The notes under the pieces: generated by a model
What the model saw: only the letters and a program-made list of their open reading frames with translations
Told to the model about the DNA's origin: nothing
Databases searched by the model: none
Made by a program: the position numbers and the translations under genes
Origin: Escherichia phage vB_Eco-B1.1
Length of the DNA: 64,000 bases
Sequence record: ON871820
Reading direction: 5' to 3' (one strand)
Part shown: piece after piece, positions 30,308-32,106 of the stretch
Position numbering within the stretch: the stretch's first letter is position 1
How the letters are laid out: each line of letters begins with the position of its first letter

Positions 30308-30916
30308 ATGAGAATGCAAAGTGATTTCAATTCAATGTTTGAAGAGTTCCAAAGGCAGGTTGATGTTCCAGACCAATTATTAAATGCTCTTAAACGTATG
30401 GCAGAAGGACGTAATTATTATTGGGGTTCTTCATATGAAACTGATGAAAGTCTTTCTGGAAGATTTTCCAGAGGTAAAAAGTCTTTAATACGTCCTGGAA
30501 TACTTATTAACAGTATTGAATCAATTCATTCATTGACGTGTGATTTTGATGTTGAATTTACTGATTTCATTTCTCCTGAATGGACAGTATGTTATTTAAA
30601 CGACGATTATGATTATCTCGGTGTTTATAGTTTAAGTGACGCATGGTTTAAACGTAATTTACAAAAGTCAAATTTATTCTATATTGATACTACTGTAAAA
30701 TTTCAGGGCAAGAAATATTTCTTTACTCTTATAGTTGATTCTGAAACGAAGCATGAAAATAAGCGTATTCTTAGTAAAAAGAATATCTTAACTATTGTTG
30801 ATGATCTTTTTGATAAATTCGTGGAAAATCCCAATTTTGAAAGCGATTTATTATTAGAAAAATTTGTTAAGGAATGTAGAGAATATGTCAAAACCATCAC
30901 TATACCTTCCAAGTAA
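30308..30916 (+). CDS. hypothetical protein
   Basis: 202 aa; C-terminal ...EKFVKECREYVK encoded by a junction repeat shared with downstream genes. Confidence 0.6.
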   Translation: MRMQSDFNSMFEEFQRQVDVPDQLLNALKRMAEGRNYYWGSSYETDESLSGRFSRGKKSLIRPGILINSIESIHSLTCDFDVEFTDFISPEWTVCYLNDDYDYLGVYSLSDAWFKRNLQKSNLFYIDTTVKFQGKKYFFTLIVDSETKHENKRILSKKNILTIVDDLFDKFVENPNFESDLLLEKFVKECREYVKTITIPSK

Positions 30917-31277
30917 ACCTTTGAAGTATGAATCAAAGCACCAGATAATTTCTACTGATGTATTAATAGGTCCTGTTATACTTATATCATTTGTAATTCT
31001 ATTGATTATTGGAGGTGTTTTAGATGTTATGACTGATATTGATTCTGGCGAAATACTTGTGTTAATGCTAATTCTTCCATTGGTAGTTCCACTTTTATTA
31101 GTACCCGTAAATTGGGTAGGATACTGGTATCAAGGAAGACATTATCGTAAACGTGTACACGATTGGAAAGCTCAGTGTAAAAAGATTAAAAAGGAACACC
31201 AGCTTAAACTTGCTGAGTATGAATTTAATGAAATTATGAAATTTGTTAAGGAATCACGATGCAAAAGCCAAAACTAA
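30885..31277 (+). CDS. small membrane protein, paralog family member 1
   Basis: ATG at 30885 after AAGGAAT; two TM segments, then a basic amphipathic C-terminus ending FVKESRCK. Confidence 0.6.
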   Translation: MSKPSLYLPSKPLKYESKHQIISTDVLIGPVILISFVILLIIGGVLDVMTDIDSGEILVLMLILPLVVPLLLVPVNWVGYWYQGRHYRKRVHDWKAQCKKIKKEHQLKLAEYEFNEIMKFVKESRCKSQN

Positions 31278-31621
31278 ATAAAGTCAAATATTCGTTTCTT
31301 GAGTCATTTTTAATTTTTGCTGTGGCGTTGGCTGCAGCTCTTGCGGGTAGTCTTTTTGGATTGTTAATTGACTGTCTTATTTTAAACATCGACGGCACAG
31401 TAAATATAACAGAAGTTTGGAATGAGCTTTGTTATACTAAAATTATTTCATTGTTTTCATTCTTTGGTATCATTTTATATTTTCATTATGATAATTTTAA
31501 AATAAATTGGCAAAGAAAAAAGGATTACAAAATACAATTAAAGGAATATAATAGCTACATGTCTTATATTGAAAATGAGTCAATGAAAGAGTTTGTGAGT
31601 GATTGTAGGAAAATTAAATGA
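31259..31621 (+). CDS. small membrane protein, paralog family member 2
   Basis: 120 aa; two TM segments; C-terminus ...EFVSDCRKIK; start overlaps the previous gene. Confidence 0.6.
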   Translation: MQKPKLNKVKYSFLESFLIFAVALAAALAGSLFGLLIDCLILNIDGTVNITEVWNELCYTKIISLFSFFGIILYFHYDNFKINWQRKKDYKIQLKEYNSYMSYIENESMKEFVSDCRKIK

Positions 31622-32106
31622 TTTTAAAAACTCGCTGGTATGATTTAGATGATGGGGATGATGGCATTCCAGTTGATAGAGTTGACTGGAATGGTTGTTC
31701 TGAAGATACAAAGAAACGATTAATTAGGGAGTTTAGAATGGGATATCAAGCAGCTAAGCCATTTACTGTAACAGATGATAAATTCGTGTGTATTCAAAAT
31801 GGTCGCGCTAAGTTAACGAATGCTGATTGGTTCACAGATAAGAAGGTTCTTCTGTGGTATATCATTAGTCTTCCTATATCATCATTCGTATTTTACTTTT
31901 TTATAAAAAATCCAATGGACAGAATAGGCGATTGGATTCTTTTAACTATACTTGTTAATATTTTTACAGCAGCAGTATTATCAGGAATATGGCGTATGTT
32001 CATTGAAATGCCATGGCGTTTACGCAGACAGCAAAAGATTTTTGATGAAAAGAAATATGCTCAAAATTTAAATAACTTTATCACTGAATGCAGGAAATTA
32101 AAATGA
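31618..32106 (+). CDS. membrane protein, paralog family member 3
   Basis: 162 aa; TM segments; C-terminus ...NFITECRKLK; ATGA overlaps with neighbours. Confidence 0.6.
   Translation: MILKTRWYDLDDGDDGIPVDRVDWNGCSEDTKKRLIREFRMGYQAAKPFTVTDDKFVCIQNGRAKLTNADWFTDKKVLLWYIISLPISSFVFYFFIKNPMDRIGDWILLTILVNIFTAAVLSGIWRMFIEMPWRLRRQQKIFDEKKYAQNLNNFITECRKLK

Follow-up and report, generated by a model that had tools for sequence, protein, structure and literature searches.

Mobile regulatory cassettes called PeSLs have been described in T4-type phages as intergenic units of ~100 bp that combine a sigma-70-like early promoter with a terminator stem-loop (Arbiol et al. 2010, PMC2839356; see also Comeau et al. 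2014, PMC4122927). The locus analyzed here, four consecutive gene junctions in a 64-kb stretch of DNA from a Tequatrovirus (a T4-like phage) that we refer to as the window, is similar in that a variable region made up of nonessential early genes has short repeats at its gene boundaries, which also bear expression signals for the neighboring gene. As with PeSLs, recombination of two flanking copies deletes the intervening gene, with a single chimeric copy left behind, but this applies to e.2 only and not to e.4. In contrast to PeSLs, the genes at the four junctions leave no space between them, the repeat is a 16-22-nt piece of coding DNA that supplies a ribosome-binding site as its signal, and conservation appears to be explained by the encoded peptide. 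Consistent with these differences, a promoter and terminator scan at the four junctions revealed nothing distinctive, and none of them holds a ~100-bp intergenic unit.

The junctions also resemble translationally coupled overlapping genes. There are ATGA overlaps at e.3/e.2 and e.2/nudE and longer overlaps at the other two junctions, and all four Shine-Dalgarno (SD) sequences lie inside the upstream coding sequence. In this comparison the junction mechanics are nothing unusual; what differs is that a conserved peptide motif provides the codons that spell the SD, and that the codons used shift between lineages. A third comparison is with deletions in the rII region of phage T4, which in classical studies reportedly had their endpoints in direct repeats of ~9-12 nt and kept one hybrid copy. 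The loss of e.2 and a deletion in phage UFV11, both described below, share these two features. Here, in contrast, the repeats occupy equivalent positions in related genes, so that deletion yields intact or chimeric genes that are in frame and survive in nature.

Repeated DNA at four gene junctions

The window shares 96.7% sequence identity with T4 and 98.6% with phage NBG2, and the genes concerned (e.5, e.4, e.3, e.2 and nudE, all on the plus strand) are neighbors in T4-like phages, the first four of them early genes. Based on the ORF list, T4 annotation, PHROGs and hydropathy, e.5 (30308..30916; phrog_2607) encodes a soluble protein of 202 aa that lacks a hydrophobic segment, e.4 (30885..31277; phrog_2604) a protein of 130 aa and e.3 (31259..31621; phrog_2330) a protein of 120 aa with two predicted transmembrane segments. 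The 162-aa e.2 (31618..32106) is assigned from the ORF list, phrog_2203 and hydropathy. The last gene in this tightly packed block is nudE (32103..32543), a Nudix hydrolase according to Pfam (NUDIX, E = 1e-13) and T4 annotation. GenBank labels e.2, e.3 and e.4 of T4 'conserved hypothetical, predicted membrane protein', and PHROGs (2203, 2330, 2604) and precomputed Pfam accessions keep the three as separate families. Pfam assigns none of e.5, e.4 and e.3 to a family and matches e.2 only to DUF4282, below threshold, while a literature search on the T4 names e.2, e.3 and e.4 found no paper. A shared C-terminal motif linking e.2, e.3, e.4, e.5 and RB69 ORF133c is absent from the annotations retrieved. 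We also considered the neighboring coiled-coil protein e.6 as PspA-like and found no support in Pfam and PDB sequence searches.

An exact 16-mer, AAATTTGTTAAGGAAT, is present on the plus strand at 30860..30875 and again at 31239..31254, where it codes for K-F-V-K-E of e.5 and of e.4, respectively. A second pair, on the same strand, is formed by TGATTGTAGGAAAATTAAATGA at 31600..31621 (the e.3 tail codons D-C-R-K-I-K-stop) and TGAATGCAGGAAATTAAAATGA at 32085..32106 (the e.2 tail codons E-C-R-K-L-K-stop), which are identical at 18/22 positions in an ungapped alignment. The exact 16-mer match was seen in none of 100 dinucleotide-preserving shuffles of the window, and an 18-mer search allowing up to 3 mismatches returned 3 sites in the window versus 0.23 expected. 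Together with the exact copies, these results indicate that the repeats reported at these junctions in an earlier note on this DNA are real and non-random; the second pair stands as a repeat, but its coordinates had been given wrongly by a few bases and are corrected above.

All four repeats are located in the 3' end of a gene and include the SD and ATG of the gene that follows. For e.5/e.4, AAGGAA at 30869-30874 is separated by a spacer of 10 nt from the ATG at 30885, and for e.4/e.3 the same hexamer at 31248-31253 is 5 nt from the ATG at 31259. The SD is AGGAAA at both e.3/e.2 (31607-31612, ATG at 31618) and e.2/nudE (32092-32097, ATG at 32103), in each case with a 5-nt spacer and an ATGA overlap with the upstream stop. 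The overlaps measure 32 nt for e.5/e.4, 19 nt for e.4/e.3 and 4 nt for each of the other two. Each downstream start codon thus shares bases with the upstream ORF or falls entirely within it and has an SD 5-10 nt ahead of it, as in coupled gene pairs; in RNA folding, three of the four junctions show no indication that the ribosome-binding site is occluded. These coordinates confirm the earlier proposal that each repeat codes for the tail of the upstream protein while supplying the ribosome-binding site and ATG of the next gene. The peptide sequences listed with that proposal are also correct, but the term C-terminus is not accurate for e.5 and e.4: owing to the 32-nt overlap of e.5 with e.4, KFVKECR lies 11 residues ahead of the e.5 stop, and the 19-nt overlap of e.4 with e.3 likewise places the e.4 motif 4 residues before its stop.

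In 451 of 494 records, identity across the 48 nt around the second copy of the 16-mer is 99% or more, and nucleotide diversity at e.5/e.4 and e.4/e.3, synonymous sites included, is zero among nine Tequatrovirus genomes, which can be explained by the overlapping reading frames but also by a role at the DNA or RNA level. In T4-type phages and RB69 the two junctions align with each other over ~60 nt, including the first six downstream codons, and the RB69 counterparts of the two 16-mers match at 11/16 positions. The identity of the 16-mers in Tequatrovirus, compared with 11/16 in RB69, and a two-codon extension past C-R-K that is common to Tequatrovirus e.3 and e.2 and absent from RB69 e.3, hint at DNA-level homogenization by gene conversion between the Tequatrovirus junctions.

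The tail peptide is retained while its codons change

In a six-frame translation of the 64-kb window, F[IV].[ED]CR is found 3 times versus 0.1 expected, always in these genes, and e.4 carries the variant F-V-K-E-S-R-C, with the shifted form F-V-K-E-x-R-C-K. We compared the codons that specify the motif in the window with those of orthologues from other genera. In the window, e.3 ends in FVSDCRKIK (TTT GTG AGT GAT TGT AGG AAA ATT AAA TGA, with E preceding the F) and e.2 in FITECRKLK (TTT ATC ACT GAA TGC AGG AAA TTA AAA TGA, preceded by N). The RB69 (Mosigvirus) e.3 protein ends in FIKECRK, encoded by TTT ATT AAG GAA TGT AGA AAA TGA, and RB69 ORF133c, a fifth carrier of the motif, ends in FIKECRGK, encoded by TTC ATT AAA GAA TGT CGA GGA AAA TAA. 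For e.2 of VR7 (Gaprivervirus) the ending is FIEECRK (TTT ATT GAG GAA TGT CGT AAA TGA), and for e.2 of LHE83 (Dhakavirus) it is FIKECRK, with the Cys codon TGC and the rest as in IME281 e.2. Thus F-[IV]-x-[ED]-C-R-(K) is kept in Tequatrovirus, Mosigvirus, Gaprivervirus and Dhakavirus despite the use of AGG, AGA, CGA or CGT for Arg, TGT or TGC for Cys and TTT or TTC for Phe. A direct example is provided by RB69 e.3 and ORF133c, which have N-F-I-K-E-C-R in common although they use different, synonymous codons at 4 of the 7 residues. Similarly, within Tequatrovirus the conserved residues change only synonymously (TTT/TTC, TGT/TGC), and replacements are limited to position x (S, N, I).

The position of the SD and the identity of the following gene vary as well. 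The SD is in the K-E codons in some lineages and in the R-K codons in others, and the gene downstream of the motif is e.2, nudE, ORF139c, ORF130c/132c or ORF132c, which are unrelated genes. With codons and SD position turned over in relatives, the peptide is the conserved object. The idea that conservation of the protein is largely a by-product of a reused DNA linker therefore fails, and what the earlier note had named as evidence against its proposal, junction repeats absent from relatives and a motif constrained as protein, is largely what we find: the motif behaves as protein-constrained, but the two e.5/e.4-type junctions of RB69 are degenerate rather than absent. The locus may serve as a worked example of how DNA-level conservation can be told from protein-level conservation at overlapping gene junctions.

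Overall, we estimate a probability of about three in four that the repeats are the 3' ends of a Tevenvirinae early gene family with a protein-selected tail, the codons of which double as SD sequences. The family would include e.4, e.3 and e.2, plus ORF133c in RB69-like phages, all presumably two-transmembrane-helix proteins with a basic, helical, probably cytoplasmic tail. The conserved motif at its end, hydrophobic-x-x-F-[IV]-x-[ED]-C-R-K, would be amphipathic and maintained by selection on the protein; soluble e.5 has this motif as well. Its K-E and R-K residues can be spelled AAGGAA, GAGGAA or AGGAAA, and their codons therefore double as the SD of the next overlapping gene; the genes would thus be packed for coupled translation. 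Similarity of the junction DNA would then result from common descent of a unit made up of tail, SD, ATG and M-x-K-P-x-L head, and also from protein constraint plus the constraints imposed by the SD and the overlap. As a side effect, deletions occasionally use the short repeats, and it is in this way that T2-type phages lost e.2. So read, there is nothing out of the ordinary in this tandem gene family, whose codons have a dual use; it is a modest curiosity and reveals no new mechanism.

Loss of e.2 and the case for a DNA linker

A different explanation, which we regard as improbable, is that the junction is mainly a DNA linker, a small recombination cassette of tail codons, SD and ATG that recurs at gene boundaries and by which coupled genes could be inserted, excised or swapped, with the shared peptide as its by-product. 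The presence or absence of e.2 speaks for such a linker: 43 phage records, including T2, lack e.2 exactly between the 22-mer copies and have a hybrid e.3/e.2 joint inside the repeat. The joint reads contiguously GATTG|CAGGAAATTAAAATGAAAAC, e.3-specific on the left and e.2-specific on the right, and the e.3 tail then reads CRKLK, the e.2 type. Two e.3 alleles, with Ser or Ile at position x, carry this joint. The deletion used the direct repeat TGCAGGAAA, as in T4 GT7. The earlier note had proposed cassette exchange between coupled genes, and for e.2 the exact absence between repeats agrees with this, but the recombinant lacking e.4 that is predicted at the pair of 16-mers was found in none of 494 records.

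A second deletion in the cluster argues against any special role for the junctions. In UFV11, e.4 and e.2 are fused into a chimera at TCCTGTGACA, a 9-10-nt repeat that is common to e.4 and e.2 of Kha5h-type phages and lies inside the coding bodies, off the junction, indicating that any short repeat will serve. At both the T2-type and the UFV11 joints, the endpoints are inside the repeat and one hybrid copy is left. Phage moha has an internal deletion of ~250 nt in e.3 with its 3' junction DNA intact, which would fit a junction kept as DNA, as would the differing genes that follow it between genera, the identical 16-mers and zero junction diversity in Tequatrovirus, and the same tail on e.5, a soluble and unrelated protein. 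However, the peptide outlives the DNA, as seen in the four Arg codons, the relocated SD and the motif of RB69 ORF133c, which does not overlap the next gene. In addition, the RB69 e.5 junction has ATGGAA in place of AAGGAA but still encodes F-I-M-E-C-R, and the motif DNA was found nowhere else in the 64-kb window. What the deletions do illustrate is that repeats of 9-12 nt at matching sites in related genes give rise, in natural T-even populations, to in-frame deletions and chimeras that are viable.

RNA-level and chance explanations

We think it very unlikely that the repeats represent an RNA regulatory site at translation starts, such as a RegA operator, a translational enhancer or a coupling structure. 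Their placement would suit such a site, with the motif always 5-25 nt upstream of the next ATG regardless of where the upstream stop is. The 16-mer also agrees at 12/15 positions with aaAAUUGUUAUGUAA, the SELEX consensus of the T4 translational repressor RegA (PMC3014915). This agreement is no better than chance, however, as the consensus with up to 3 mismatches occurs 8 times in the window versus 12.9 times expected, and we rejected the 16-mer as a RegA operator. A hairpin of -14.2 kcal/mol with the SD in its loop is possible at e.3/e.2 (z = -2.15), but this is unconvincing after four tests, and folding at the other three junctions is no stronger than that of shuffled sequence (z = +0.1 to +0.75), so junction RNA structure was also discarded. 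Furthermore, there was no Rfam match with E < 0.6, and codon turnover in relatives keeps the peptide and not the RNA sequence. Chance similarity in an AT-rich genome with stereotyped ribosome-binding sites is barely credible: T4 gene starts commonly consist of AGGAAA or AAGGAA, an AT-rich spacer and ATGA, and part of the 22-mer is therefore generic, but the shuffles, the excess of the peptide motif (confined to adjacent genes and to positions near their ends) and its conservation across four genera had already refuted chance as the origin.

Proteins that carry the tail and its possible function

The remaining evidence for a gene family with a protein-selected tail comes from the proteins themselves. 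Hydropathy and charge indicate that e.4, e.3, e.2 and ORF133c each have two hydrophobic segments, probably membrane-spanning, followed by a K/R-rich tail of 33-49 aa. In e.4 the tail is 49 aa long and ends in KFVKESRCKSQN at the stop; in e.2, a soluble N-terminal part of ~75 aa precedes the two segments. The AlphaFold2 model of e.3 has helices at 13-42 and 58-119 (pLDDT 88), with the second transmembrane segment predicted as one helix that continues to the C-terminus. e.5 does not have this two-helix layout, yet carries the same tail motif. Profile comparisons with hhalign, based on shallow alignments (Neff < 2), matched e.3 with e.4 over 37 columns (E = 3e-5), with ORF133c over 18 columns (E = 9e-6) and with e.2 over 15 columns (E = 8e-5), and e.2 with ORF133c over 13 columns (E = 6e-5). 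Beyond the tail, e.3 matches the e.4 PHROG family over its full length (E = 0.003), M-x-K-P-x-L starts both e.4 and e.3, and P-V-T..S-F-V at the start of the first transmembrane segment is common to e.4 and e.2.

We infer from these similarities that the genes probably arose by duplication. As the hhalign similarity is nearly limited to the tails, full-length paralogy of e.2, e.3, e.4 and ORF133c is not proven, and since e.5 is clearly a different protein, at least one transfer of the tail or convergence is needed. The tail could instead have spread among unrelated bodies by recombination, which would count against the family as we propose it.

A speculative and rather unlikely function for the shared tail helix is that of an assembly module joining e.5, e.4, e.3 and e.2 into one hetero-oligomeric inner-membrane complex. 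Its hydrophobic face, Leu/Met-Phe-[Ile/Val]-Cys-[Leu/Ile/Tyr] with one invariant Cys per protein, might then pack into a helical bundle, for instance, or contribute to a Cys-metal site shared by the proteins. If this were true, the overlapping coupled genes would set the stoichiometry of the complex, and the junction repeats would let phages gain or drop subunits in frame. Whatever its function, one tail motif links five 'hypothetical' T4-group proteins (e.2, e.3, e.4, e.5 and RB69 ORF133c) and provides a handle on a block of uncharacterized early membrane proteins.

The distribution of the tail is narrow. A word-indexed search with e.3 returned close relatives only, a tail-profile search for wider relatives yielded only fragments and chimeras of the same families, and a search of IMG/VR gave 5 loci. 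An exhaustive HMMER search of 1.84 billion representative proteins with the tail profile produced 8 matches, all but one from this clade. The single match outside it is to a repetitive protein of 1110 aa and is probably spurious.

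Repeated DNA and a shared tail at four gene junctions

The window comes from a Tequatrovirus; over the 2.4 kb around the four junctions, it shares 98.6% identity with phage NBG2 and 96.7% with T4. Gene order was taken from the T4 annotation and the ORF list, and runs on the plus strand as e.6 (29673-30266), e.5 (30308-30916), e.4 (30885-31277), e.3 (31259-31621), e.2 (31618-32106), nudE (32103-32543) and the lysozyme gene e (32580-33068). The nudE product is a Nudix hydrolase, and PHROGs assigns e.5, e.4, e.3 and e.2 to four distinct families of unknown function. The sole intergenic structure heading the packed e.5-to-nudE block is a GC-rich hairpin (GGGGCTTCGGCCCC, 30269-30289) inside the 41-nt gap between e.6 and e.5.

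The e.5/e.4 and e.4/e.3 junctions contain exact copies of AAATTTGTTAAGGAAT at 30860 and 31239, a type of exact match seen in 0 of 100 shuffles. At the e.3/e.2 and e.2/nudE junctions, TGATTGTAGGAAAATTAAATGA (31600-31621) and TGAATGCAGGAAATTAAAATGA (32085-32106) are identical at 18 of 22 positions, and a search for this second pair allowing up to 3 mismatches returned three sites where 0.23 were expected. Both pairs had been claimed in the earlier note, and both are confirmed, although the second had been placed slightly off these positions. Translated in six frames, the window contains three instances of the peptide pattern F[IV].[ED]CR (0.1 expected), in each case near the end of e.5, e.3 or e.2, and the tail of e.4 is a variant, F-V-K-E-S-R-C. 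The C-terminal peptide is shared as proposed, but in e.5 and e.4 it does not lie at the extreme C-terminus.

Every repeat holds a Shine-Dalgarno-like hexamer within the upstream coding sequence, 5-10 nt before the next ATG at all four junctions. In e.5 and e.4 this hexamer is AAGGAA, read as K-E; in e.3 and e.2 it is AGGAAA, read as R-K. The genes overlap by 32 nt at e.5/e.4, by 19 nt at e.4/e.3 and by ATGA at the other two junctions. The repeat thus combines the tail codons of one protein with the Shine-Dalgarno and ATG of the next, and the dual use of codons inferred previously holds. In Shigella phage vB_SsoM_113 (sequence L004, 1045-2019; window 30855-30862), the A-run before the 16-mer is 1 nt shorter (GAAAAATTT to GAAAATTT), a deletion that fuses e.5 and e.4 into a single 324-aa ORF; the fusion may be genuine, or an artefact of sequencing through the homopolymer.

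Codon turnover in relatives points to conservation of the peptide

The window e.3 ends TTT GTG AGT GAT TGT AGG AAA ATT AAA TGA (FVSDCRKIK) and e.2 ends TTT ATC ACT GAA TGC AGG AAA TTA AAA TGA (FITECRKLK). In the Mosigvirus RB69, e.3 ends TTT ATT AAG GAA TGT AGA AAA TGA (FIKECRK), followed by the unrelated ORF139c, and e.2 ends TTT ATT ACC GAA TGC AGG AAT TTG AGA TGA (FITECRNLR). RB69 ORF133c, a newly recognised carrier of the motif, ends TTC ATT AAA GAA TGT CGA GGA AAA TAA (FIKECRGK), with the next ATG past the stop and no overlap. The e.2 tail is TTT ATT GAG GAA TGT CGT AAA TGA (FIEECRK, then ORF132c) in the Gaprivervirus VR7 and ... AAG GAA TGT/TGC CGT AAA TGA (FIKECRK) in the Dhakaviruses IME281 and LHE83. 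Across these phages four codons (AGG, AGA, CGA, CGT) serve for the invariant Arg, and Cys and Phe each appear with both of theirs. N-F-I-K-E-C-R is common to RB69 e.3 and ORF133c, with four of the seven codons differing synonymously, and in RB69 e.5 ATGGAA replaces AAGGAA while the peptide still reads F-I-M-E-C-R. Within Tequatrovirus, conserved motif residues vary synonymously and replacements (S, N or I) fall at the third, variable position. The place of the Shine-Dalgarno depends on lineage, in K-E or E-E codons versus R-K or R-G-K codons.

It had been argued that the peptide likeness is partly a by-product of a DNA linker reused at four boundaries. That is not the case, as relatives keep the peptide while its codons and the position of the Shine-Dalgarno change. 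On this comparative evidence we consider the peptide to be the conserved object, with the Shine-Dalgarno apparently accommodated opportunistically in any codons that permit it.

Some signals do persist in the DNA. In a set of nine Tequatrovirus genomes, 30865-30910 and 31236-31268 show zero nucleotide diversity, against a regional mean of 0.073 and values up to 0.3 in transmembrane-coding parts, and 451 of 494 records match the 48 nt surrounding the e.4/e.3 junction with an identity of 99% or more. The zero-diversity zones coincide exactly with the overlap of two reading frames and a ribosome-binding site, which is enough to explain them. The 16-mer pair is identical at 16/16 positions in Tequatrovirus versus 11/16 in RB69, and Tequatrovirus e.3 and e.2 share a two-codon extension past C-R-K; in these small numbers there is a hint of some homogenisation between junctions. 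Conservation at the RNA level, as a folded structure or RegA operator, fares less well. A hairpin at the e.3/e.2 junction (31589-31633) presents the Shine-Dalgarno in its loop (-14.2 kcal/mol, z = -2.15 against shuffles), but this is modest, and marginal given four junctions tested; the other three fold no better than shuffled sequence, and an Rfam search gave no match. The 16-mer matches the RegA SELEX consensus aaAAUUGUUAUGUAA (PMC3014915) at 12 of 15 positions, yet such sites are no commoner in the window than in shuffles (8 versus 12.9), and a RegA operator was rejected.

Loss of e.2 and other recombinants

T2 and 236Ecol005PP lack e.2, and e.3 meets nudE directly with an ATGA overlap. The joint is e.3-specific through GATTG and then e.2-specific from CAGGAAATTAAAATGAAAAC; consequently, the T2-type e.3 ends CRKLK rather than CRKIK. 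A 64-nt probe across this hybrid joint has a contiguous match in 43 phage records (including T2 strains, PP01, IME340, UFV-AREG1 and Ozark), roughly 9% of the ~500 Tequatrovirus records. Deletion of e.2 appears more parsimonious than insertion, because RB69, VR7 and Dhakavirus also have e.2 ahead of nudE, separated from it by one small ORF (ORF130c/132c), and because RB69 e.2 ends ...L-R, making the L-K ending e.2-specific. Two e.3 alleles, one with Ser and one with Ile at the variable position, carry the joint; this could reflect recurrence or later recombination. T2 and other e.2-less phages have GATTGCAGG at the annotated nudE start, without the upstream ATG that the T4 annotation uses (MQEIKMKTL..., 151 aa; window 32088-32105), suggesting that the conserved start is probably the ATGA-overlap ATG at 32103 (146 aa).

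In phage T4 GT7 (sequence L001, 3200-3215; window 31890-31905), an A-run frameshift (TATAAAAATCC versus TATAAAAAATCC in the window) splits e.2 into ORFs of 102 aa and 63 aa, and laboratory T4 thus seems to carry an e.2 pseudogene; e.2 is intact (162 aa) in the window, AR1, Kha5h and others.

Deletions also arise away from the junctions. UFV11 (L012, 1914-2234) carries a natural in-frame chimera of e.4 residues 1-31 and e.2 residues 87-162; the deletion removes e.3, and the joint lies at TCCTGTGACA, a 10-nt repeat present in both e.4 and e.2 of Kha5h-type phages. In Mosigvirus moha (L017, 2875-2992), e.3 has lost ~250 nt internally and is a pseudogene; its 3' end is preserved, including the codons for NFIKECRK and the ATGA at which the next gene starts. 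In other phages, e.4 and e.3 may have undergone further internal deletions or been joined into chimeras, judging by protein fragments P0051 and P0056. The e.2-less joints and the UFV11 chimera show that short repeats occupying corresponding sites in these related genes mediate gene loss and chimera formation. The junction repeat is one of several of this kind rather than a device dedicated to exchange. Cassette exchange, as envisaged in the earlier note, is partly supported by the 43 records lacking e.2, but the e.4-less recombinant predicted at the 16-mer pair appears in none of 494 matching records.

Among known systems, PeSL cassettes of T4-type phages come closest: a gene flanked by two copies is excised when these recombine, and a chimeric copy stays behind. 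A PeSL occupies ~100 bp between genes and comprises an early promoter plus a terminator stem-loop (PMC2839356). Loss of e.2 likewise leaves one chimeric copy, but the junctions have no such intergenic unit, promoter or stem-loop. ATGA overlaps with an internal Shine-Dalgarno, as found here, are a routine arrangement. Deletions between short direct repeats are long familiar from T4 genetics. Overall, the observation is real, and its earlier interpretation is partly right, in the dual-use codons and one recombination event.

Layout and possible kinship of the tail-motif proteins

In each of the proteins e.4, e.3, e.2 and ORF133c, a short acidic loop lies between two hydrophobic segments, and a K/R-rich tail of 33-49 residues follows with the motif at its end. 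An additional soluble N-terminal part of ~75 aa is present in e.2, and hydrophobic segments are absent from e.5. The positive-inside rule would place the tails in the cytoplasm. For e.3, an AlphaFold2 model (17 sequences; mean pLDDT 88, pTM 0.57) has a single helix at 58-119, from TM2 through to the C-terminus. A helical projection places L/M, F, I/V, C and I/L/Y on one face, which suggests that the motif is a surface for packing or interaction. What is modestly new is that e.2, e.3, e.4, e.5 and RB69 ORF133c share a single conserved C-terminal helix motif.

In profile comparisons, similarity between families is almost confined to the tails: e.3 aligns with e.4 over 37 columns (E = 3e-5), with ORF133c over 18 (E = 9e-6) and with e.2 over 15 (E = 8e-5), and e.2 with ORF133c over 13 (E = 6e-5). 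Hints of wider homology may be seen in a full-length match of e.3 to the e.4 PHROG (E = 0.003), in the starts of e.4 (M-S-K-P-S-L) and e.3 (M-Q-K-P-K-L) and in P-V-T..S-F-V, common to e.4 and e.2 at the start of TM1. The upstream junctions of e.4 and e.3 align over ~60 nt in T4-type phages and RB69 alike. The simplest reading would be an ancient tandem array, older than the divergence of Tequatrovirus and Mosigvirus, with a repeat unit running from tail codons through Shine-Dalgarno and ATG to a two-helix body; full-length paralogy is putative, and e.5 must have gained its tail by fusion or convergence. Word-indexed searches and an exhaustive search of 1.84 billion representatives confined carriers to Tequatrovirus, Mosigvirus, Dhakavirus and Gaprivervirus. 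Residues 92-103 of e.4 (window 31155-31190), ~25 residues upstream of its own tail motif, read D-W-K-A-Q-C-K-K-I-K-K-E, resembling the C-R-K-I-K ending, and are kept in RB69 as E-W-K-V-Q-C-A-K.

Mosigviruses (L005/L020, RB69) carry ~3.2 kb of extra genes, ORF139c to ORF132c, in position between e.3 and e.2. This block holds ORF133c, the fifth tail-motif protein, and in VR7 and Dhakavirus a homologue of ORF132c immediately precedes e.2. Another tandem trio, RB69 ORF138c, ORF137c and ORF136c (L005, 3062-3652), has similar C-termini (GAWVSSPALC, GGWVASSHTC and QGWVSSSYSC, respectively), with TAAGGAA and the next start following ORF138c and ORF137c; from its sequence, the trio appears to be another instance of a common tail beside a ribosome-binding site.
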